Assembly: GCA_965261545.1 (NCBI GenBank)
Contig: CBDHDF010000002.1
Coordinates: 643,016 to 707,015, forward strand
Reading direction: 5' to 3'
DNA length: 64,000 nucleotides
From: Bdellovibrionales bacterium
GTDB taxonomy: Bacteria > Bdellovibrionota > Bdellovibrionia > Bdellovibrionales > UBA1609
Of the stretch, positions 1-12,661 are shown piece by piece. How positions within the stretch are numbered: the first letter of the stretch is position 1; each line of letters starts with the position of its first letter. The translations under genes and the position numbers were made by a program. The notes beneath the pieces were generated by a model. The model saw nothing but the letters and a program-made list of their open reading frames with translations, made no database searches and had not been told where the DNA came from.

Positions 1-325
1 TAAGGAAAAATCTGATTTTAGCTTCTCTTTGGATATCCCTGCTTTGTCCGCAAAGAGTTCATGAAGGGCTGCGGAGATAGAAAAGCCCCCGCCATGCCAA
101 TGAAGTGATTGAGAGAGCTTGGAAGAGCGGGCCACCGAGAGAGAGTCTTATTTGTACCCCAATGAGCACCCACAAATCCTCCAAAGGCGATGATGCCGTG
201 GAGAAGATTGGGTGAAAAAAATCATTTTTTGTGAATTTCTCTTGGACAAATAGTGGCTTTTCAGTATGATTTGAGAGTAGTGACCGCGAAGGTCAATAAC
301 ATCAATATACGGGGAGGAAGAATCC

Positions 326-865
326 ATGGCGAAGAAAAAAACAGCTACAAAAAAGAAGTCAACAAAGAAGAAAGTAGAAAGAAAGTCGACAACGAGGAAA
401 AAAGCAGCAAAGAAGTTGAGTCGAAAGGGAGCTTCTAAAAAGGCAATCACTGGAAAAAAAGCCACAAAGAAGAAGGCCACAAAGAAGAGCGTGACGGCTA
501 AAAGAGGGACTAAAAAGAAAACAAAGGCAGGAGTGAAGGTCAAAAAAAGCACGACCACAGCAAAAAAGTCCAAGGCAAAGAAAGCCACAAAGGCCGCAAA
601 AAAGACAAAGTTAAAAAGAAAGCCTAACCCCGCTTTTATGAAACCCTGGACCCCTAGTGAAGAACTTGCCGCTGTGGTGGGCCCCAAGCCTTTACCTCGA
701 ACTGAGGTCATGAAGAAGGTATGGGAGTACATTAAAGAGCATGACCTCCAAGATAGTAAAAAGCGTCGCAATATCAATGCAGATGAAGTTTTAAGGCCTG
801 TATTTGGTAAAAAGACCATCGACATGTTTGAATTGGCAGGACTTCTTGGCAAGCACCTAAGTTAG
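326..865 (+). CDS. SWIB/MDM2-domain protein with long histone H1-like Lys/Ala/Thr-rich N-terminal tail
   Basis: About 97 aa of KKA/KKT-rich sequence, then the SWIB signature (PNPAFMKP..PSEELAAVVG..RTEVMKKVWEYIKEHDLQD..RRNINAD); GA-rich RBS upstream. Confidence 0.92.
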   Translation: MAKKKTATKKKSTKKKVERKSTTRKKAAKKLSRKGASKKAITGKKATKKKATKKSVTAKRGTKKKTKAGVKVKKSTTTAKKSKAKKATKAAKKTKLKRKPNPAFMKPWTPSEELAAVVGPKPLPRTEVMKKVWEYIKEHDLQDSKKRRNINADEVLRPVFGKKTIDMFELAGLLGKHLS

Positions 866-899
866 GTTCTGTTAGGAGTTGTTCGTTAGATAGATAGAG

Positions 900-1799
900 A
901 TGAGTGCCTCCGCCTTTGACCTGATTTTTGACTTGCTTTTAAGGGCTCGAAGGGTTTTGAGGGCCTTTGGACAAGTTGGGTCAGGCAACAAAGCGCCCCT
1001 TGGATGTTGCATTCAGGCCATAATCTTGCTAGCTTTGGTTCCTATGACACCTCTTGCTGCCAATGAAATAAGTAAAATGGAAGGCTCTTGCCAACTTGCC
1101 GCAAGGACACTTGCCCATGTGGGCTCTTTCGTGAAAGAAGGCATGACCACCAATGAGTTGAACCAGATTGCCGACGATTTTATTCGGAGTCATGGTGCGA
1201 TTCCCGCCCCATTAAACTATCATGGTTTTCCCAAGTCTATTTGTACCTCGATCAATGAGTGTGTGTGCCATGGAGTTCCCAGTGAAGCTTCTTTAAAAGA
1301 GGGTGATATTATCAATATTGATGTCACTTGTATTTTAGATGGTTTTTTCGGGGACACATCTTCTATGTTTTTTGTGGGTACAGTGACAGAGCGGGCTAAG
1401 AGTCTTTCTGAATGTGCCTTGCAAGCGATGTGGGAGGGTATTGGTGCCCTTGGGCCTCAAGCGACGACAGGTGATGTTGGCTTTGCTGTGAACAAGTATG
1501 TGACAAGGCATGGTTTTTATGCCGTTCGAGATATTGGTGGTCACGGTATTGGAAAAGTCTTTCATGATGCTCCCTTTGTGCCCTCCCATGGCAAGAAGGG
1601 GCGTGGCCCCCAACTTAAACCTTGGTGCTGTTTGACAGTGGAGCCCATGGTCAATGAGGCCTCGGAGGACGTCATTGAGTTGAGTATTCCTAACTCTACC
1701 ATAAAATACTATGAAACCCGGGACAAAACTCTTTCAGCCCAATATGAACATACGATTATGATTACCGATTCAAGCTATGAGGTTTTAACACAACTATAG
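900..1799 (+). CDS. map: Type I methionine aminopeptidase (true start probably ATG 1044)
   Basis: GFPKSICTSINECVCHG, DVT..GDTS, GHGIG..H, EPM and QYEHT metal-ligand motifs. Confidence 0.95.
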   Translation: MSASAFDLIFDLLLRARRVLRAFGQVGSGNKAPLGCCIQAIILLALVPMTPLAANEISKMEGSCQLAARTLAHVGSFVKEGMTTNELNQIADDFIRSHGAIPAPLNYHGFPKSICTSINECVCHGVPSEASLKEGDIINIDVTCILDGFFGDTSSMFFVGTVTERAKSLSECALQAMWEGIGALGPQATTGDVGFAVNKYVTRHGFYAVRDIGGHGIGKVFHDAPFVPSHGKKGRGPQLKPWCCLTVEPMVNEASEDVIELSIPNSTIKYYETRDKTLSAQYEHTIMITDSSYEVLTQL

Positions 1800-1855
1800 T
1801 TCTTAAAAGTTCTTAAAAAAACTATCGTTTCTAAAGTGAAAAAGGAGTTAAGGAT

Positions 1856-3250
1856 ATGCAAGGCGTGGTTAATAGGACAGAGAAATTCACCAAATCAAAG
1901 AAAGCATTGGTTCAGCCACTGCAAAGTGAAAATGATTTTAGGGTTTGTGATGAGGCCATGGAGGACCCCAAGAGGTTTCAAGAGCTCGCTCGCTGGGGGC
2001 GCGAGGAAATCCAAATTGCTGAAACTGAGATGCCTGGACTTATGGCTCTTCGAAAGGAATACAAAGACAAACAGCCCTTAAAGGGGACACGCATTTCAGG
2101 CTGCTTGCACATGACGATTCAAACAGCTGTGCTCATAGAAACACTCAGGGTTCTAGGGGCTGAAGTTCGGTGGAGTTCCTGTAATATCTACTCCACCCAA
2201 GACCATGCTGCGGTGGCTATGGCAGCGGCAAGAGTTCCTGTATTTGCATGGAAAGGTGAAACAGAGGAAGAATTTAATTGGTGTATTGAGCAAACGATCA
2301 CTGGGTGGGGGCCTACAGGCTACAACCTCATTTTGGATGATGGTGGTGATTTAACCAATATGATGCACGAAGAGCGTTTTGCAGCGGAGATGAAAAACAT
2401 TGTTGGTCTCTCTGAGGAAACCACCACAGGGGTTCACAATCTTGTGAAGCTCCATAGGGAGGGGCGACTTAAGGTTCCATCCATCAATGTCAATGACTCT
2501 GTGACCAAATCTAAGTTTGATAATTTGTATGGGTGTCGTGAATCCTTAGCTGATGGTATCAAGCGAGCCACGGATGTGATGATCGCAGGAAAGGTGATTG
2601 TTATTGCAGGTTATGGGGATGTGGGTAAGGGCTGTGCTCACTCCATGCGTTCCTATGGGGCACGAGTGCTTATCACTGAAATTGATCCTATCTGTGCCCT
2701 CCAAGCGGCCATGGAAGGCTTTGAGGTGCTCACCATGGATCAGGCTCTGCAACAGGCTGATATTTACGTCACAGCCACAGGTTGCTGTGATATTATTTCT
2801 GCGCCTCATTTTATGAAGATGAAAGCAGGTGCCATTGTTTGCAATATTGGCCACTTTGACATTGAAATTGACATGGCCTGGCTGAGTGCTCACACAAAGG
2901 TACGAGAGGTCAAGCCCCAGGTAGACCTCCATACCTTTAAAGATGGTCGTGAGATTATTGTCTTAGCCAAGGGGCGTTTAGTGAACTTGGGTTGTGCTAC
3001 GGGACATCCTAGTTTTGTCATGAGCCACTCTTTTACAAATCAAGTGATGGCTCAGATTGATCTTTGGACCCACAAAGAAAAGTATCAAGATGTGGGGGTT
3101 TATGTCTTATCCAAGGAATTGGATGAAAAGGTGGCTTTTCTTCATCTGGAAAAGCTGGGGGTTCATCTCACCACTTTGTCTGATAAACAATCCCAGTACT
3201 TGGAAATTCCTAAATCGGGTCCCTTTAAGCCCGACCACTACAGGTACTAG
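1856..3250 (+). CDS. ahcY: Adenosylhomocysteinase
   Basis: [51 protein letters not shown] and C-terminal [10 protein letters not shown]. Confidence 0.98.
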
Positions 3251-3377
3251 GAGAGATGAGGTGACTTCTTGTGCATTGTGTCTTGTTATCGATAATTTTG
3301 AGGTTATTCGTTAGGTTTTATGATACTCCTTTGCATTCAGTCACTGTGCAACTGCGTATGAGAGGTCTAGGTATTTT

Positions 3378-4007
3378 ATGAAAAAACCAGGTAAAGTCGC
3401 TCGTTATAAGATTCAACGTCGTCTAGGAATGGAGCTTCCCGGTCTTGGGAAGCCTGGGGCTTTGGAGCGTCGCCCCTATCCTCCGGGTGAAAAGGGAAAT
3501 CGTCGGCGTAAATATTCGGATTTTGCCCTCCACCTTGAGGAGAAGCAAAAAGTTCGTTTTCACTATGAGTTGAGGGAGGAGCAACTTCGTCACTTTATCC
3601 GCCGGGCCAAGCATGGGCGTGGGGCTAATTGGGTTAGTAAGTTGGCGGGTCTTCTTGAGTGTCGTCTTGACAATGTGGTTTTTCGCCTGGGTTACGCTCC
3701 CAGTATTCGATCAGCTCGACAGCTTATTAGCCATGGTCACCTTCGTGTCAATGGTCAAAAGGTCAATATTTCATCTTTTATTTGTTCCGTGGGTGATAAG
3801 GTTTCCATAGCTTCTAAGGCCAAGGAAAATCAAATTGTTTTACAAGCTCAAAAGAGCCCTCGTTTAGAAATTCCAGACTTTCTTCGAAAAGAGGAGGATT
3901 CTGGAGAAGAAATGGGTATTCTCCAAAACACTCCTGGTACAGAGCATATTCCATTTGCCTTTGATGCTGGCTTGTTTACGGAATATTATGCTGCGCGTAA
4001 GGTTTAG
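3378..4007 (+). CDS. rpsD: 30S ribosomal protein S4, stand-alone copy without the Zn-ribbon cysteines
   Basis: RRPYPPG, EKQK.RFHY, LE.RLDNVVFRLG, ARQLISHGH; not next to rpsK/rpoA. Confidence 0.93.
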   Translation: MKKPGKVARYKIQRRLGMELPGLGKPGALERRPYPPGEKGNRRRKYSDFALHLEEKQKVRFHYELREEQLRHFIRRAKHGRGANWVSKLAGLLECRLDNVVFRLGYAPSIRSARQLISHGHLRVNGQKVNISSFICSVGDKVSIASKAKENQIVLQAQKSPRLEIPDFLRKEEDSGEEMGILQNTPGTEHIPFAFDAGLFTEYYAARKV

Positions 4008-4320
4008 TGAGATAGACTCTTCTCACTTATAAAGAGATATTTTAAATATTCATGATTTTTTCTCGTGATAATGAACACTAGTCATGGTGACCGACTAGGT
4101 CGCACATTTCTTTTGTGAAAGCAGTACCTCCTAAAATAATGCATCGCAGAAATCTCCCCCTGCTCATTGAAGCCTTTCAAAGTCCCAAAGACACTTGAGG
4201 CCTAAGAACTAGAAATGTATACTTAATGAAGATTAAAAAGGGGCATCAAAAGCAAAAAAGACTTCTCAGACCCCTTAAAAAAAGAGTGGCTTCATGCTTT
4301 AGGAGCAAAATATCAATTCA

Positions 4321-5961
4321 ATGTCAGCATCAACAGAAAATAAGCAAGAAGATAATGAAAGATACGGCCATGAATTATTTATTGGCCTTGTTGGGGCAAC
4401 AGGTTCAGACTTAGCTTCTGTGGAATCCTATATTAAAGACATACTCTCCAATTTTGAATATAAAATGACAGGCATCAAATTTAGTAGTTTTTTTGAATCT
4501 GAAGAAAGTCTTATCAAAAAATTTTTAACTCAAAAGGATATTGAAATTGATAGAACGAACTCAACGAATTCTTTTAATAAAATTTATTCTCAAATGGAAG
4601 CTGGCAATAAAATTCGATCTGGAACGCAGGATAATTCTATTTTGTCGGGATATGCTATCGGAGAAATTAATAGAAAAAGAATAAAAGAAGTAGATCAGAA
4701 AACCAAAACACATAAACCTATTATTTCTGAGTATAGCGCTTACCTCTTCAATTCTCTCAAACACCCTGATGAGTCTAAACTTTTGCAAAAGACTTACGGA
4801 GCTTCATATTATCAGATCAGCGTTTTTTCTTCTGAAAAACAAAGAGCTTCTTATTTACTTACAAAGAAGGGTATCCAAAAATTGTCTGATGTCTACAAAT
4901 TGATAGAAAAGGACATCTCTGAAGATGATGATTTTGGCCAACAAACAAGAGACACTTTTCATTTATCCGATTTTTTTATAAAACATGATCATGAAAATGA
5001 AGATGAAACAAGACGACAATTAGAAAGAATTTTTGATTTAATATTTGGACACCCCCATATAACTCCTACAATTGATGAGCATATGATGTATATGGCCTAT
5101 GCTTACTCCACGAGATCAGCAGATCTTTCACGCCAAGTAGGAGCCGTAATTGCAAATGAGTCTGGAGATATCTCAGGTCTCGGCTCCAATGATGTGCCAA
5201 GATATGGTGGTGGTCCATACTGGCCTTGCCCAAAGACAAATAATAACTTGGACTGGCGTGATTATAAAAAAGGTGAAGATGCCAATCAGATAAATAAAAA
5301 TAAAATGATAGTAGACGTAGTAAAAAATATAAAAAAGGAATTCAAAGAAATCATAGATGATATGGAACTTCATGAAGATGAGAAAAAGAAGCTTCTTGAT
5401 CATTTTGAAGACAGTAGCCCAGAAGATGGTTCTCTCCTTGAAATAGGAAAGAAATACTTTAAAGGAACTGACTTCCTTGACATAAGTGAGTTTGGTCGAG
5501 CAACACATGCTGAAATGTCAGCTATTTTAAATTGCTCAAGAAATGGTGTTATCCCCAAAGGAAAGATATTATACTGCACAACTTTTCCCTGTCATAATTG
5601 TGCCAAACATATTGTCGATGCAGGAATTAAAAAAGTTTTCTTTGTTGAACCGTATCCAAAAAGCAAAGCTCAAGTTCTACATAATGATGCTATTTCTTTT
5701 GAAGAGCATAAAGAAGGCAAAGTCATTTTTGATCACTTTATAGGGGTTGCTGCAAGGAAGTATCTGGATTTATTCTCATTAAAATTAGGTATGGGAGAAT
5801 CTCCACCAAGAAAAGATAAGAAAACAGGAAAAATAAATAAATTTGACAGAAAGACTTCTAACATTAAGGTGCATGGACATGTACACAAATATTTAGAAGA
5901 CGAAGAAAATGCTGTGGCATCTTTTAAAGAAATAATTGAAGAACTTAGGAAAAAGAAATGA
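4321..5961 (+). CDS. Anti-phage dCTP deaminase (P-loop kinase-like plus Zn deaminase; Dcd/AvcD family)
   Basis: N-terminal ELFIGLVGATGS, SLKHPDE, GQQTRDTFHLSDFF, RSADLSRQVGA, HAEMSA and TTFPCHNC motifs; visibly AT-rich. Confidence 0.93.
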   Translation: MSASTENKQEDNERYGHELFIGLVGATGSDLASVESYIKDILSNFEYKMTGIKFSSFFESEESLIKKFLTQKDIEIDRTNSTNSFNKIYSQMEAGNKIRSGTQDNSILSGYAIGEINRKRIKEVDQKTKTHKPIISEYSAYLFNSLKHPDESKLLQKTYGASYYQISVFSSEKQRASYLLTKKGIQKLSDVYKLIEKDISEDDDFGQQTRDTFHLSDFFIKHDHENEDETRRQLERIFDLIFGHPHITPTIDEHMMYMAYAYSTRSADLSRQVGAVIANESGDISGLGSNDVPRYGGGPYWPCPKTNNNLDWRDYKKGEDANQINKNKMIVDVVKNIKKEFKEIIDDMELHEDEKKKLLDHFEDSSPEDGSLLEIGKKYFKGTDFLDISEFGRATHAEMSAILNCSRNGVIPKGKILYCTTFPCHNCAKHIVDAGIKKVFFVEPYPKSKAQVLHNDAISFEEHKEGKVIFDHFIGVAARKYLDLFSLKLGMGESPPRKDKKTGKINKFDRKTSNIKVHGHVHKYLEDEENAVASFKEIIEELRKKK

Positions 5962-6398
5962 GTGAAGTAGATAAAATTAAATATGATGACAATGATGATT
6001 TATTTTCTTTAGAGTCTCAAAGGAATAAAGCCAATGGCACCTTCACTACCCACAATGAAAAATTTAAGAAAAAAAATGTAGATAACAATAAAGATTTCGA
6101 ATCAGAAAATCTAGAAGATACTTCTCTTTCTTTTGAAGAAAATGTTCGTCGTGCCGTAGGAGAAGTCTCTAATTGGCCAGCTTGGAAGCTAAAACACATG
6201 CGATCATCCTTTTCTGAAAAAAGAGAATGGAAAATCAAGGGGAAAGACTATCAGTTAGAAAATACTCCCCTTTCTTTTGAAGAAAATGTTCGTCGTGCCG
6301 TAGGAGAAGTCTCTAATTGGCCAGCTTGGAAGCTAAAACACATGCGATCATCCTTTTCTGAAAAAAGAGAATGGAAAATCAAGGGGAAAAAGTATTAA
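5958..6398 (+). CDS. Small hypothetical protein with a tandemly duplicated 48-aa unit, translationally coupled to the dCTP deaminase
   Basis: ATGA start/stop overlap at 5958-5961; SFEENVRRAVGEVSNWPAWKLKHMRSSFSEKREWKIKGK occurs twice. Confidence 0.7.
   Translation: MSEVDKIKYDDNDDLFSLESQRNKANGTFTTHNEKFKKKNVDNNKDFESENLEDTSLSFEENVRRAVGEVSNWPAWKLKHMRSSFSEKREWKIKGKDYQLENTPLSFEENVRRAVGEVSNWPAWKLKHMRSSFSEKREWKIKGKKY
6126..6389 (+). repeat. 144-bp-period direct repeat with about 120 bp identical between copies
   Basis: ctttcttttgaagaaaatgttcgtcg...aatcaaggggaaa at 6126-6245 and 6270-6389. Confidence 0.95.
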
Positions 6399-6658
6399 TT
6401 ATAATTGATAAATTTATTCCATGAGCTATTGCGAGAACGAAATAATTGCCCTCACCCATCGACCACGAAAATAACTTCTGTAGACATTGTCTATTTCGAT
6501 TTACCGGTTCAATGAGCCGTGGACTTGATTCATTCTGTCAGAAATTTCCATAGCCATAAAGGCAGGATAAGACTCTATGTGTCATTCAAGGTCCAGAGGC
6601 CCAGTTCAGAGTCAAAGGATGCGAAGAAGAGAGGCCCAAGAGGCAGAGCCTCTCCCAC

Positions 6659-7975
6659 TTATCTTATGTGTGTGAGTCCCCCTGTGTAGGGGTGGAGGGC
6701 TTTGGGGATTTTAACACTTCCATCTTTTTGCTGATAGTTTTCGAGAATGGCGATGAGAGCTCTTCCAATGGCGAGCCCAGACCCATTGATAGTGTGAACA
6801 AACTGAGGTTTTACTTTCGCCCCTCTATCCCTGTCCCTAAAGCGAATATTGGCTCTGCGTGCCTGGAAATCTTCAAAGACAGAGCAAGAGCTTATTTCTC
6901 TGTAGGCTTTTTGACCGGGAAGCCATACCTCTAGGTCGTAGCACTTTGAGGCTCCGAAACCGATATCTCCCGTGCATAAAGCCGAGACTCGGTAGGGAAG
7001 CTCTAGTTTTTGTAGAATTGCTTCGGCATCTGTAGTTAACATTTCAAGTTCATTATAGGATTCATTGGGGTGAACAAACTTTAAAAGTTCCACTTTGTTA
7101 AATTGGTGTTGGCGAATGAGCCCTCGGGTATCTCTTCCATAACTGCCAGCCTCCGAGCGAAAGCAAGGCGAATAGGCCACAAATCTTTGAGGTAAATCAT
7201 CCACGGAAAGAATCTCTTCTGCAAACATATTGGTGACAGGGACCTCTGCTGTGGGTACGAGGTAGTAATCTGTTCCATCCAAATGAAAGACGTCTTCCTT
7301 AAATTTGGGGAATTGGCCCGCTCCAAACATGGAGTGGCTATTGACCACAAAAGGGGGAATCACTTCAACATAGCCGTGCTCTCTGACATGAATATCCATC
7401 ATAAACTGGATGAGAGATCTTTCCAAAAGAGCTGCTGGACCCTTTAAAAAGACAAACCTTGCCCCTGTCACCTTACTTGCTCGTCCAAAATCTAAGATGT
7501 CCAACTTTTCACCGAGTTCAAAGTGTTCTTTGGCTTCAAAGTCAAAGGAAGGGAGTTGCCCCACAGACCTTAAAACTTGGTTCTCTGCCTCAGAGGCTCC
7601 TATGGGAGTTGTATGGTGACATATATTGGGAAGTTGGCTCAGGTGCTCCTTCAACTCAAAGGCTACTTTCTCCATATCCTTGGCCATTTCTTTGATCTTT
7701 CGGCTCAATGTTTTCATTTCTGTAAGCACTTCTGGGGGAGGGGCTTTTTTCTCTTTTTTTAAGTTGGCGAAGTCCTGTCCCACTTTGTTTTGGTGGGCTC
7801 TGGCCCTCTCCATTTCACCAATGAGTGTTTTTCGTTTGCCATTGATTTCAAGGAGATTGTGAATTTCCAGAGGATCCATCCCTCGGTTTTTCAAGGTGAG
7901 TTTATAGTCTTCTATAAATGTTCGTCCCGTTTCTGGAAGAGGATTTTCATCATCTAATTTCTTGAGGTCAATCAT
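6659..7975 (-). CDS. serS: Seryl-tRNA synthetase
   Basis: [46 protein letters not shown]. Confidence 0.98.
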
Positions 7976-8103
7976 AGCACTTGCCCTATGTGTTCAATGC
8001 ACCAAGCCCAATGTAGTTCAGTGTAGTTCAATATGGTATTGGTGTATTGATTCTATGTATAACTCTATGTATATTCAATTCAATGTATATATGTATATTC
8101 AAT

Positions 8104-8397
8104 TTAATTCAATGAAGATTGAATATACATCTTAAGGAGGAGGGCTATCAAGACACAAATGAAGTCAAAAATAAGGACGCTGGGAAGTCTCCAAGTCTGG
8201 GAAATTTTCATGAAAATACCGATGGTCACAACGGTGATAAAAGTGAAGCTGAGTTGATCGTAGCCAAGGATTTCTTGTCCAATGAGAGAGAGGGTGAGGC
8301 CAATAATTAAGCCTGTAAAGAGTTTAAGTGAATAAAACCCAAGGTGACTTGAGGTGTTTTTTACTTTCATATTGAGTTTGCCGGCCCATTCGGACAT
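8104..8397 (-). CDS. Small membrane protein of unknown function (about 3 TM segments)
   Basis: Three hydrophobic segments; AAGGTGAGG RBS upstream. Confidence 0.65.
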   Translation of the reverse strand: MSEWAGKLNMKVKNTSSHLGFYSLKLFTGLIIGLTLSLIGQEILGYDQLSFTFITVVTIGIFMKISQTWRLPSVLIFDFICVLIALLLKMYIQSSLN

Positions 8398-8573
8398 ATT
8401 TCCTCACCTTTCTGACCTTCATTGATTGCCTTATCTTCGTTGTTGTTTTTTCTTGCCTTATCTTATCTTGTCTTGCCTCTCAATGCTCTTTAAAGGATAC
8501 TTAACTTTATTGTAGTCCTTTATGGGTGAGAGATGCAATCCCTTGGATATCATAGGTGCTTCATAGTTGGTAG

Positions 8574-10784
8574 TTGGAGCTAGAGGAGGGGTTCATGTCT
8601 ATCATAAAGAGTCATAGAGACTGCCATCAGGGGGGGCACCGTGGCCTTCGTGGCCACCATAAAAAAAACTTTCAAATAGTCACGCCTTTTCAACCATCGG
8701 GAGATCAGCCCAAGGCTATTGCCCAAATGGTGGGAAATATTCGTGAAGGGGCTTTTCATCAAACTCTTTTAGGAGTGACAGGGTCTGGAAAAACTTTTTC
8801 CATGGCAAAGGTTATTGAAGAATTGAATCTTCCCACCCTTGTTTTGGCGCCCAACAAGACCTTGGCGGCTCAGCTTTACGCTGAGTTTAAGGAGCTTTTT
8901 CCCCACAATGCCGTGGAGTATTTTGTTTCCTACTACGATTACTACCAGCCTGAAGCTTATATCCCCTCCACCGGTACATTTATTGAAAAGGATTCTTCCA
9001 TCAATGAGCAGATTGATCGTATGCGACATTCTGCCACTCGCTCCCTTTTGGATCGTCGAGATGTGATTATTGTGAGCAGTGTTTCTTGTATTTATGGTCT
9101 TGGAAGTCCCGAAGTCTATGAAGGCATGCTCATCCAAGTTGTGGCGGGGACAGACATGCAAAGAGATCACCTGTTGCGGGAACTTATTCGGATTCAGTAC
9201 AAGCGTAACGACCTAGACTTTCATCGTGGCACTTTTCGCGTCCGTGGGGATGTGGTGGATATTCACCCCCCCTATGAAGAGGATCGAGTTCTTCGTTTGG
9301 AGTTCTTTGGTGATTTTATTGAGAAGCTGTCTTGGGTGGATCCCCTCCGAGGACAAGCCTTAGAGGAAGTGGATCAGGCAGCTATTTACCCGGGAAGTCA
9401 TTATGTGAGTTCTGATGAAAAAATACACATGGCCATTGAGACCATTCGAGAAGAGCTTCGTGAGCGCATTCAGTATTTTCGAGATGAAATTGAACATGGG
9501 AAAGCCGAGCGCATTGAGCAAAGAACTCTTTACGATTTGGAAATTATGCAAGAGATGGGATTTTGTTCGGGCATTGAAAATTATTCGAGACACCTGACAG
9601 GTCGTGCTTCGGGAGATCCTCCCCCCACCTTGTTGGAATATTTTCCCCAAGAGTTCTTAACTTTTGTGGATGAGAGCCATGTGACGATTCCTCAGATTGG
9701 TGGCATGTACCGGGGGGATCGGGCGAGAAAGCAAACTTTGGTGGAACATGGTTTTCGCCTGCCTTCGGCCCTTGACAATCGTCCCCTTCATTTTCAAGAG
9801 TTTGAAAAGTATGCGGATAAAGTAGTTTATGTTTCTGCCACCCCAGGTGACTATGAGTTCAAAAAGAGCGAAGGCTTGGTGGTGGAGCAAATCATTCGCC
9901 CCACGGGTCTTATTGACCCCATGGTGGAGGTGCGCCCTGTGGTTCATCAAGTGGATGACTTACTTGCAGAAATTGTGAAGAGAGGGGAGCGCAACGAGAG
10001 AGTCCTTGTGACCACTCTTACAAAAAGAAGTGCTGAAGAGCTTACGGACTATTACGAAGGTTTGGGGGTCAAGGTGAAGTATCTTCATAGCGATATTCAC
10101 ACCATTGAAAGAACGGAACTTATTCGTGATCTTCGCTTGGGAGTTTTTGATGTTCTCGTTGGAATCAACCTTTTGCGGGAGGGGCTTGATCTGCCCGAAG
10201 TGAGTCTTGTTGCCATTACAGATGCCGATAAGGAGGGTTTTTTGCGTTCGGAGCGATCTCTCATTCAGACCATTGGGAGAGCTGCACGAAATGTCGAAGG
10301 GCATGTGATTCTCTATGCAGATAAGGTCACAAAATCCATGGAGTCGGCTATGTCTGAGACCCAGAGGCGCCGAAAAATTCAGAAAAAACATAATGAGGTC
10401 ATGGGAATTGTTCCACAAACTGTGCAAAAATCCATGGGTAGGGGGCTCGTGGATGTTTACAGTGCTGAGCCCAGAGACGCAGGGGGGCTTGCTGTGGCCT
10501 CTTTCAGTCCTCCCTATCAGTCTAGAAAATCTCCATCTAAGAAGTCTCTATCTAAAAAGAAAGGGTCTCAAAAGAATTGTACCAAAGGCTTAGCCAAGGA
10601 GATTGCAAAATTACGCCGACAGATGAAGAAGCATTCAGATCGTCTCGAGTTTGAGGAAGCTGCCAAAACAAGAGATGAAATCAAGCGTTTGGAGATGATG
10701 GAGCTTGCCGGTCTTTCAGGGGCTATTGAAGAAGAGTCCTTGGCGGTGATATCCCATGGGTTGAAGGAGGGGGAGGGAGAGTGA
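8574..10784 (+). CDS. uvrB: Excinuclease ABC subunit B (likely start ATG 8595)
   Basis: [38 protein letters not shown] and C-terminal UVR domain. Confidence 0.98.
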
Positions 10785-12661
10785 GGTCTGGGCACCTAAA
10801 AAAAAAGTCCATTGGTGAGAAGTTTAAGGCTCGGGTGAAGTTATTTCCCGAACAGCCCGGTGTGTACTTGATGAAAGATATATCTGGAAAAATCATATAT
10901 ATTGGAAAAGCCAAAGAACTGCGTACAAGAGTGAGGAGTTACTTCACAGGTTCTAAGGATCACAGCATTAAAACCCAGTATTTGGTCAATCAAATTGATA
11001 ACATTGATTATATGATTACCCACACAGAGGTGGAAGCTTTTTTGCTTGAAGCTTCTCTTATTAAAAAACATCGGCCCAGGTACAATATTCGACTCAAAGA
11101 TGATAAGTCTTATCCCTATATTCGATGTAGTTTGGAGGTGGACTTTCCAAGATTTTACCTGAGTCGCAGAGTAAAAAATGATGGCGCTATGTACTTTGGC
11201 CCCTATACCAGTGGTTTGGCTGTTCGAGATACCATTCGCTTTTTGAATCGAATTTACCAGATAAGGGACTGCACCGATCATTTTATGAAATCGAGAAAAC
11301 GAGCCTGTATGACTCACCAAATAGGTCGATGTACGGCCCCTTGTGTAAACTATATTGCCAAAGAAGAATACCGTGAAAACATTCAAGGAGCACTTTTTTT
11401 TTTAAAGGGTCGGAGTAAAAAAGTTCTTCATCACTTGAAAAAAGAAATGAAGAAGGCCGCCAAAGAAGAGCGCTTTGAAGCTGCCGCAAGATTGCGGGAT
11501 AGTATTTCGGCGGTGGAGGTTATTTGGAAAAAACAGTTTATTGTGAACTCCCATGTAGATACAGATCAAGATGTTATTGCCTACCATGGAGATCACCGAG
11601 GTACCCTCATTGAGACTCTTCATGTTCGCAGTGGTCGTGTGACGGGGAACCGTTCTTATTTTTTCCCAAAGTTGAATGTGCAGGCTGAGGATGAAGACCC
11701 TCGTGAGTGGCTTACATCTTTTATCAACCAGTATTATAGTGAAAATGTCATTCCCGATGAAATTATTATCTCTGTGGACCTAGGGGAAGACCTTTATAAA
11801 CTTCTTGGACAAGTTTTGAAGATGCGTCAGGGCAAGGAGAGGGAAAGTCAGTTTATCTATGTCCATAGGGAAGAGCATGTCCAATTATTAGAACTCGCTC
11901 AAAGCAATGCTGTAAGTCATTTTGAAGACCAAGTTTCTAAGCAAGAAGACCTTGTCCAGGCTCTAAAGATCATTCAAACTCAGTTCAAGCTTCCTGCCCT
12001 TCCCCAAAGAATGGAGTGTTTTGACATCTCTAACTTTCAAGGTGATGAAAGCGTGGCAAGTCAGGTTGTCTTTGTGGGTGGTGTGCCTCAAAAAGATGAG
12101 TATCGTCGCTATAAAATCAAGACGGTGCAGGGGGTCAACGATTATGCAAGTATGAAAGAGGTTTTAGGGAGGCGCTTTCTTCATACGGAATATGATGATC
12201 CTCAGTTAGTTCTTGTGGATGGGGGACGTGGCCAACTCAATAAGGCTGTGGAAATCTTAAAAGAGCTAGGGCGTTCTGAAATACCTGTTGTGGGAATAGC
12301 CAAGGCAAGAACCGAGAGGAACTTTCAAAAAGAAGAAGTGGTTGAAAGCGAGGAGCGCTTTTTTTTGCCCCAAAGACAAAACCCTGTGACCTTCTCAAGA
12401 GGGGGGGCTCTTCACATATTGGTTCAAATGCGAGATGAAGCCCATCGATTTGCCATCACCTATCATAGGAATTTAAGAGGTAAGAATTTACTGTCCAGTG
12501 AACTCGACAAAGTAAAGGGGCTTGGGGAGGTGCGAAAAAAAGCTTTGCTTCAGAAGTTTGGCTCCGTGGAAAAGCTCAAAAACGCCTCTGCCGAGGAAAT
12601 ATCTAAAGTTCAAGGCTTTTCAATGAATTTGGTTGAGAAAATTCTGAAACAACTTGGTTAA
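10781..12661 (+). CDS. uvrC: Excinuclease ABC subunit C
   Basis: GIY-YIG (PGVYLM..IYIGKAK), [27 protein letters not shown] and C-terminal HhH. Confidence 0.98.

Follow-up and report, generated by a model that had tools for sequence, protein, structure and literature searches.

The window analysed here, 64,000 nt of contig CBDHDF010000002.1 from a Bdellovibrionales bacterium (positions 643,016 to 707,015), carries between rpsD and serS two adjacent, co-oriented genes, the first for an anti-phage dCTP deaminase of the AvcD/DcdV kind and the second for a small protein partner made largely of two copies of a short helical module. The enzyme is known; we rate as new the conserved protein partner encoded downstream of it, the family to which its module belongs and the spread of this module in phages, which suggests an unrecognised protein regulator of deaminase defence. 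Direct support was obtained for the family of the enzyme, for the partner as a selected protein gene, for the genetic coupling of the two genes across a clade and for the concerted evolution of the partner units. Positions given without a contig or locus name are those of the window.

The deaminase and the protein gene that overlaps it

The deaminase gene (4321..5961, +) encodes 546 aa, with a P-loop-kinase-like N-terminal domain and a zinc cytidine/dCMP deaminase C-terminal domain. The protein belongs to the AvcD/DcdV family, in line with the dCTP deaminase that the earlier note on this DNA had proposed. It matched the NCBIfam equivalog NF041025, 'anti-phage dCTP deaminase', at 445 bits (cut-off 400), residues 18-487 aligning with profile positions 1-432 of 437; the PADLOC dCTPase model PDLC02373 at 495.6 bits (6.9e-149); and the Pfam model PF00383 (dCMP_cyt_deam_1) at 1.5e-16. 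In a 38-sequence alignment the zinc motifs H396-A397-E398 and P423-C424-x-x-C427 were invariant, and G22, L23, V24 and G28, in the GLVGATGSDL segment of the N-terminal half, were nearly so. This half is covered by the NF041025 profile, and no separate Pfam model matched its P-loop-kinase-like domain. A word-indexed search with the deaminase returned 6203 proteins at E<=1e-20 among the 7999 candidates scored, many of them bearing the NCBI name 'anti-phage dCTP deaminase', and a PDB sequence search matched dCMP deaminase domains only.

The partner gene (5958..6398, +) encodes 146 aa, with a disordered acidic N-terminus and two helix-WPAWK-helix units, and its start overlaps the deaminase stop in the sequence ATGA (ATG at 5958-5960, TGA at 5959-5961), an overlap described correctly in the earlier note; the same coupling was found in relatives. 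The acidic N-terminus was likewise recovered, the first 55 residues having a net charge of -5 and a pI of 4.6, and the residues beyond them a charge of +9 and a pI of 10.0.

The small open reading frame (ORF) is a conserved, selected protein-coding gene. An untranslated ORF, which the earlier note had named among the outcomes that would undo its proposal, is contradicted by purifying selection, with ratios of non-synonymous to synonymous substitution rates (dN/dS) of 0.12-0.17. Two paralogs on contig C10 of the same genome are 133-aa frames with 40% identity (E ~1e-22); dN/dS (Nei-Gojobori) was 0.15-0.17 between the window partner and these paralogs. The C10 copies, which differ from each other by 8 synonymous and 5 non-synonymous changes, gave 0.12. 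As the units of any one gene are not independent of each other, the effective sample is smaller than the codon count. Substitutions among the paralogs clustered at third codon positions, and the gaps in their alignment comprised whole codons only. The partner is diverging faster than the enzyme, as window and C10 copies share 40-43% identity in the partner and 54-56% in the deaminase. The strand opposite the C10 partner genes has an uninterrupted ORF of 101 aa (L002/L003:1468-1773, +); antisense frames are broken in the window (6017-6238 and 6251-6382), so that this ORF is probably a by-product of the repeat.

No family in Pfam, NCBIfam or PADLOC matched the partner, and a first word-indexed homology search with the 146-aa protein returned only itself. 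An exhaustive phmmer search of 1.84 billion representatives gave 12 matches at E<=1e-3 (best similarity E 5.6e-25), namely the query, eight true relatives (62-159 aa) and three DUF285 repeat proteins (P0007, P0008 and P0010), which were rejected as repeat-driven; a profile search with the partner family gave 16 matches. Nothing was found by tblastn of the window partner against plasmids and phages, and the one phage match of P0002 was at chance level. Against 109 family-level genomes the 146-aa protein gave two weak matches (L006, E 1.2e-3; L007, 9e-3, with stops). A 410-aa protein with a WPDW motif (L029, E 7e-4) was not accepted as a family member, and a protein-atlas search gave no usable match. 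The sequence was present in four DNA runs from one sample, with no RNA run among those listed.

On sequence grounds the partner is a member of a family without a name, whose defining feature is an amphipathic helix that ends in E-V-x-x-W-P-x-W-K. The module is 25-30 residues long and has no model in Pfam, NCBIfam or PADLOC; its W, P, W and K were invariant or nearly so in a 58-row alignment, and both window units carry the motif. An AlphaFold2 model of the 146-aa protein (10-row alignment) had a mean predicted local distance difference test score (pLDDT) of 60.6, with residues 1-53 below 50, and placed helices at 59-71, 75-86, 107-119 and 123-134, each unit being predicted as helix-WPAWK-helix; a single-unit model (58-row alignment) reached pLDDT 93-94 over the helix-WPAWK core. 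With the 146-aa model no Foldseek match to the PDB was obtained at E<=0.001, a wide VIA-align search with a 49-aa unit gave generic helical hairpins only (best Z 3.4), and the unit profile found nothing among PDB sequences. The profiles of two PHROG families without assigned function align with the helix-WPxWK core of several members, phrog_29728 (P0002 3.9e-7, P0003 1.8e-6, window protein 0.0024) and phrog_38465 (L139 1.4e-5, L207 2.8e-4), but these matches were short and weak, and the window gene was not among the matches at E<=1 when the whole genome was searched with phrog_29728. No DNA-binding domain was found in the partner by Pfam, NCBIfam or PADLOC, its predicted fold being a two-helix hairpin. 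A complex prediction of deaminase (38-row alignment) and partner (10-row alignment), run without controls, gave an ipSAE of 0.00 in both runs and counts neither way.

The doubled unit and its linkage to deaminases

A tandem repeat search delimited two units of 144 nt (48 aa), at 6112..6255 and 6256..6399 (+), and 120 nt in their middle match exactly, in agreement with the 48-aa period and the roughly 120 identical base pairs reported by the earlier note. Tandem Repeats Finder reported a single array, 6112-6389, with a period of 144 nt, 1.9 copies, 97% matches and no indels, and a second repeat search paired 6112-6255 with 6256-6399 at 95%. The copies differ at 7 positions, all in the first 14 or last 10 nt, and at the protein level their 37-aa cores (SFEENVRRAVGEVSNWPAWKLKHMRSSFSEKREWKIK) share 100% identity. 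The doubling is not an assembly artefact: the junction between the units is bridged by Logan unitigs (6216-6299 in X1 and X2, 6216-6285 in X3 and X4) with more than 31 nt on both sides in each of the four runs, and the two-unit build recurs in six other proteins. The repeat core stood at about twice the flank depth in two of the four runs, which represent one sample from one study, probably the source sample, and are not independent support.

The earlier note had called the unit recently duplicated in frame; the duplication is indeed in frame, but it is not simply recent, the architecture being common to seven diverged proteins. Within all of the complete two-unit proteins (n = 7/7) the units are 92-100% identical, whereas between proteins they are 38-92% identical (mean 58.6%), with means of 58.6 for like and 58.5 for unlike positions. 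The window protein has a period of 48 aa, five of the others 51 aa and the last 52 aa, and the linkers can be aligned between proteins (e.g. QLEN with QVEN). This pattern of identities indicates an old duplication under concerted evolution, the alternative being repeated independent duplication at one place. Two close relatives, P0005 and P0006, have a single unit with 57-65% identity to that of the window, so that unit number is labile, and no three-unit protein was seen among the members found. The dCMP deaminases are hexameric, and PDB entry 2w4l lists 6 chains; units that are identical within a protein and diverged between lineages would fit two equivalent binding sites on a symmetric partner, such as the enzyme, with gene conversion keeping both units identical. 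The homogenised two-unit form offers a natural series of one and two units for testing valency.

Motif homologs were found directly downstream of dCTP deaminases at many independent loci, unannotated short ORFs included, as expected from the earlier note. In the genome of the window tblastn detected four AvcD-like loci, and at all of them (4/4) a family member starts -3 to +4 nt from the deaminase stop. One C10 deaminase (C10:162119-163588, 54% identity) is intact; the second C10 copy has lost ~890 nt internally, which leaves a remnant of 224 aa, its partner remaining intact. The fourth gene (C11:889235-890665, 495 aa, 35% identity) is followed 3 nt on by an ORF of 64 aa that has AAGGAG in front of it and holds one diverged unit (…EKWEPWKF…), the three closer loci having two units each.

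Elsewhere in the same class, an AvcD-like match at E<=1e-30 was present in 10 of 390 genomes. Two of these genomes, G064 and G317, are of the same order as the window. The deaminase of G064 (57% identity) overlaps by ATGA a 65-aa ORF (…REIRNWPQWKILNTRLAFSE…, hidden Markov model (HMM) E ~1e-8), at a locus that also adjoins a DRT-type reverse transcriptase, and in G317 the deaminase stop is directly followed (TAAATG) by a 69-aa ORF (…AKEVDGWPAEMK…) behind AAGGAGG. HMM-negative ORFs of 51-74 aa lie 3' of four further AvcD-like genes of this order (L015:1175-1387, -; L016:1094-1249, -; L017:2780-3004, +; L019:1051-1266, -); two of them overlap the deaminase by 4 nt, none has recognisable WPxWK-family similarity, and these ORFs could be either unrelated genes or partners that have diverged strongly. 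L013 and L018 had no convincing small downstream ORF, and L014 is cut by the contig end. Tight coupling, in which the small ORF begins between -3 and +5 nt relative to the stop, was found at 7 of the 11 evaluable loci of the class; the genome-wide figure for ORFs of 400 aa or longer is 36 of 1133 (3.2%). The related genomes are not independent.

The closest plasmid-borne deaminase (38% identity, 4e-97), carried by two near-identical Vibrio nigripulchritudo plasmids and annotated as an anti-phage dCTP deaminase, is overlapped at its end by an unannotated ORF (…SRVESWPAWKQ…, HMM 5e-7; L063:2918-3100; NZ_AP027047.1 120708-120887, also in NZ_AP024089.1), absent from the gene table of the record, which is stated to be incomplete. 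The plasmid deaminase loci of Klebsiella, Zymomonas and Pararhizobium had no WPxWK ORF downstream, and the Klebsiella plasmid has an annotated 61-aa ORF 12 nt upstream of the deaminase, which is the AvcI position. A scan of IMG/VR gave 65 deaminase-related loci, of which L067-L123 were analysed. Among the closest ten (L067-L076), all nine with room downstream (L067-L075) carry a motif ORF of 56-80 aa (HMM 2.6e-7 to 0.016), each with a Shine-Dalgarno sequence and an ATG, at a guanine-cytosine (GC) content of 39 to 64%. The Vibrio plasmid and these nine partner loci, ten independent loci together, lay outside the HMM training alignment. More distant deaminase loci with room downstream had no partner (0/53).

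The distribution of partners was compared with the phylogeny of 70 deaminases: 12 of the 14 partner-bearing rows fell in one 18-row group (SH-aLRT 92), whose remaining six rows are class relatives with unrecognised or missing small ORFs, and the partner label required 4 changes on the tree against a shuffled mean of 13.0, none of 500 shuffles being as low. Four of the 14 rows (window, L003, L011 and L023) were in the HMM training alignment, and L012 and L120 had been left out of the tree by an ORF filter. Shared longest-contig values link the two-unit proteins P0003 (with P0025 and P0050, 42877), P0004 (with P0032, 59933) and P0015 (with P0043, 14310) to deaminases, values that show co-occurrence and not proven adjacency. 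At two IMG/VR loci outside the main partner clade (L084:2844-3011 and L085:2034-2210), deaminase-coupled ORFs of 55-58 aa contain …LE[TS]WKKEII…, a string to which the HMM gives no score and which may represent the motif in degenerate form. The cellular subfamily of the window partner is deaminase-specific and the wider family is not, so that the linkage on which the earlier note had staked its proposal holds in the former and fails in the latter.

The role of the partner and the module in phages

Anti-phage dCTP deaminases have so far been annotated as single-gene systems or as a protein with an upstream small RNA (sRNA), and in the literature, subscription-only papers and supplements aside, no description of a downstream protein partner, of the module family or of its spread in phages was found. 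In published work, DcdV needs both of its domains and deaminates dCTP and dCMP; DifV/AvcI, an untranslated sRNA whose gene directly precedes that of DcdV on the same strand, inhibits it post-translationally (10.1101/2021.03.31.437871); AvcI is labile and is lost once phage or rifampicin stops host transcription (PMC10511110); and in the E. coli dCTP deaminase the kinase-like and the deaminase motifs are both needed, T7 escaping through gene 5.7 mutations (10.1101/2021.04.26.441389). The closest known systems, AvcID/DcdV-DifV (V. cholerae VSP-1) and the 'anti-phage dCTP deaminase' that Tal et al. described, have the same family and domain order as the window enzyme. Further likenesses, which would apply to the window by analogy, are carriage on island or mobile DNA, an expected depletion of the dC-nucleotide pool and post-translational control by a small adjacent gene product (10.1101/2021.03.31.437871, 10.1101/2021.04.26.441389, PMC10511110). 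In contrast to the upstream, untranslated AvcI, the adjacent gene of the window is downstream, overlaps the deaminase stop and encodes a conserved protein, under selection as such, which speaks against its acting as RNA. The enterobacterial relative on the Klebsiella plasmid, with a small ORF upstream and no WPxWK ORF downstream, differs from the window in the same way, and the partner-bearing deaminases occupy a part of the tree of their own. The activation mechanism of this branch is probably different, and defence-finding tools miss one component throughout it, the partner gene being mostly unannotated.

Our tentative reading, to which we give somewhat less than an even chance, is that the locus is a two-gene nucleotide-depletion defence of the AvcD/DcdV type in which the partner is a regulatory subunit acting as a labile protein inhibitor. 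The enzyme, judging from its family, would deaminate dCTP/dCMP and thereby starve phage DNA synthesis. The partner would be made from the deaminase mRNA by translational coupling, and its helix-WPxWK units would dock on the oligomeric enzyme and keep it off. Shut-down of host gene expression by a phage would then deplete the unstructured partner and so release the enzyme. Binding, inhibition, lability and a contribution of the doubling to valency are thus what we infer; the partner would be the protein counterpart of the AvcI sRNA, working like toxin-first anti-phage toxin-antitoxin pairs. Such pairs include RnlA-RnlB and LsoA-LsoB, and T4 Dmd is a phage-encoded mimic of an antitoxin. The window locus resembles them in having the effector first and the small partner next, possibly with phage look-alikes and, presumably, a labile partner whose loss on host shut-off would activate the enzyme; it differs in the internal tandem duplication of the partner, and no relation of sequence or fold is expected.

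The inhibitor reading is favoured because the partner was kept intact where the C10 deaminase was destroyed and because G317 has a lone copy, and it draws also on the coupling within the clade (where, the class relatives with unrecognised or missing small ORFs aside, each deaminase has a partner), the predicted disordered N-terminus and the AvcI precedent. The lone G317 copy, a second one in that genome, is in a 1446-nt, 99.7% identical duplication (L027, L012) next to purD. This duplication also carries an epimerase-like gene and is ~135 kb from the deaminase locus.

Several observations weigh against this reading, the foremost being that the module is found with other effectors and in many phage proteins, a range of settings not expected of an inhibitor motif dedicated to one enzyme and one that favours a bait or sensor. 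Cellular members occur without a deaminase: a 127-aa protein of G358 has an N-terminal unit and is encoded among genes of no known family, and on a JGI contig (L009:1-3444) a 73-aa single-unit ORF with WPDWK begins 118 nt after an IetS-like S8 protease gene (PADLOC IetS 2.9e-32) and is followed by PDC-M41B/A candidate defence genes. This ORF was the one confirmed among 93 stretches that a strict-motif DNA pattern picked from metagenome contigs; none of 21 stretches was confirmed in viral contigs, and the sole one confirmed among 29 in genome contigs (L008) was judged spurious, an alternative frame of high-GC DNA. The pattern misses diverged members such as that of Vibrio.

A search of IMG/VR with a DNA pattern of EVxxWPxWK gave 113 loci, about half that number being expected by chance on our estimate. 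At 52 of the 113 a frame scored E<1e-5 on the family HMM, chance matches to the motif alone reaching ~1e-3, and three features of the upstream helix that were not part of the search pattern (aromatic at -10, hydrophobic at -6, small at -3) occurred together in 15 of 101 evaluable frames, with 0.5 expected. No deaminase lay within 2 kb of 51 of these 52 phage-contig frames, the exception (L244) being the L070 site. The phage members are ORFs of 40-150 aa or modules inside larger ORFs; they conserve the first helix and WPxWK only, with the motif often 5-26 residues from the C-terminus. Their neighbourhoods are mostly of replication or nucleotide metabolism: in a PHROG scan of 56 neighbouring ORFs, most of which had no match, the named ones comprised DNA polymerase, polymerase exonuclease subunit, single-stranded DNA-binding protein, helicase, primase/helicase, exonuclease, DNA methyltransferases, HNH endonuclease, pyrophosphatase, metallophosphoesterase and small terminase. 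A 285-aa ORF ending in the module (L142:1245-2099, +) is located between PHROG matches to DNA polymerase and polymerase exonuclease subunit; we take it to be a polymerase fragment from a DTDS motif and these neighbours only, as no library or PDB match was obtained.

Three points internal to the deaminase loci weigh in the same direction. On the tree, which was obtained by a quick maximum-likelihood search and whose related rows make the shuffle test overstate the case, L074 and L075 do not fall in the main partner clade. The DNA-binding domain typical of many type II antitoxins, in which it serves autoregulation and is common though not universal, was not found in the partner. Finally, the 313-nt spacer 5' of the deaminase leaves room for an AvcI-like RNA, and the partner may thus not be the sole regulator, or may not be the inhibitor in the first place.

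The same observations bear on the main rival, a different role that is possible though on the doubtful side, in which phage replication-associated proteins would use the module as a docking motif for some common factor. A defence island would mount a copy of it, as sensor or bait, on a small adaptor attached to an effector (deaminase or IetS), and binding of the phage-borne or phage-altered factor would trigger that effector. This would account for the frequency of the module in phage contigs, for the unsearched helix features of its frames, for the largely replicative named neighbours and for the motif being so often near the C-terminus; it agrees also with the faster divergence of the partner and with the module accompanying two unrelated effectors, deaminase and IetS. 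The latter likeness, a module ORF downstream of an IetS S8 protease gene amid defence-candidate genes, comes from one locus only, where ietS is cut by the contig end, and the effector is unrelated to the deaminase. The common binding factor is presumed only, no structural analogue was found in the VIA-align and Foldseek searches, and the second helix is conserved in the cellular deaminase-linked members and not in the phage members, whose target may differ; the retention of a partner beside the deleted deaminase is neutral. A module present in phage replication neighbourhoods and beside another effector is a candidate for a general interface between phages and host immunity.

An extension of the docking idea, unlikely in our judgement, is a three-way mimicry in which the motif has been copied onto baits for AvcD-type deaminases and IetS, with phage copies, free or fused (e.g. 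to an Acb2/Tad1 domain), serving as decoys; the window would then show one face of it, the homogenised double unit being a bivalent bait.

That the module is at root a phage inhibitor or decoy, the cellular genes being its source or captured copies and the phage copies neutralising AvcD-type deaminases after the manner of antitoxin mimics, is distinctly improbable. It is suggested by a 68-aa ORF on two large IMG/VR contigs (L144 and L180), 48% identical over its whole length (E 2e-17) to the deaminase partner of L070 and without a deaminase within 2 kb, and by a 141-aa ORF (L138:1866-2288, +; identical in L172) in which an N-terminal helix-WPAWK module shares its frame with an Acb2/Tad1 hairpin domain at the C-terminus (Pfam PF24729, 2e-13 and 50.7 bits, cut-off 27; phrog_1454 1.2e-16), a domain of known phage anti-defence proteins. 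However, IMG/VR contigs can include host or prophage-borne defence DNA, a single close phage-side relative of a deaminase partner was seen, fusions to large proteins of unknown function are left unexplained, and an internal Met near residue 71 in L138 could make two genes in one frame, splitting the module from Acb2/Tad1. A counter-defence role of the phage copies is compatible with the partner being an inhibitor or a bait.

Very little probability attaches to an RNA-level element, in which the tandem repeat would be a type III-like RNA antitoxin and the ORF incidental. Type III antitoxins are tandem repeats, which gives the idea its appeal. There is also a precedent in AvcI, which overlaps an ORF dispensable for its function (10.1101/2021.03.31.437871). 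However, the dN/dS of 0.12-0.17 and the concentration of changes at third codon positions point to a protein, as do the frame-preserving length differences of all the paralogs, the conservation of the protein across GC 39-64% without DNA similarity, the single-unit relatives that have no repeat and the broken antisense frames. A spurious ORF or assembly artefact, for which it can be said that one sample only holds the sequence, is practically dismissed by the junction unitigs, the 7 substitutions at the repeat edges, the paralogs and homologs, and purifying selection.

Genomic setting

The two genes lie in an AT-rich islet (4010..6650), a 2.6-kb stretch delimited by GC contrast, between rpsD (3378-4007, +) and serS (6659-7975, -). 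The GC profile placed it where the earlier note had seen it, with GC 0.31-0.37 across 4001-6400 against about 0.44-0.50 in the flanking genes. The 313-nt spacer (4008..4320, +), a possible site for a promoter, contains a terminator-like hairpin after rpsD (4087-4103) and a promoter-like site (4195-4223); no Rfam match was obtained at E<=1 in 3300-7000, and the spacer had no similarity to the DNA upstream of the paralogous loci. No tRNA was found in 1-12000 and no integrase match near the islet, the nearest PF00589 match on the contig of the window lying at a distance of over 130 kb. Neither serS nor ahcY was within 1.5 kb of rpsD in 16 relatives belonging to other genera, so that insertion of the islet is not demonstrable by synteny.

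The three other AvcD-like loci of this genome adjoin tyrosine recombinase genes (PF00589, 88-94 bits), a domain with 23 matches in the genome overall. The C10:158000-198500 region holds a module in which deaminase, two-unit partner and tyrosine recombinase genes come together and which is present twice, at a spacing of ~27 kb and with 97-98% identity between the copies, along with a deaminase fragment (194386-195160) and a third, identical-scoring integrase match (181662-182174). Next to the fourth deaminase (C11:886500-893500) is a 478-aa ORF that looks like a transposase, and a copy 99.7% identical in nucleotides stands beside the damaged C10 locus.

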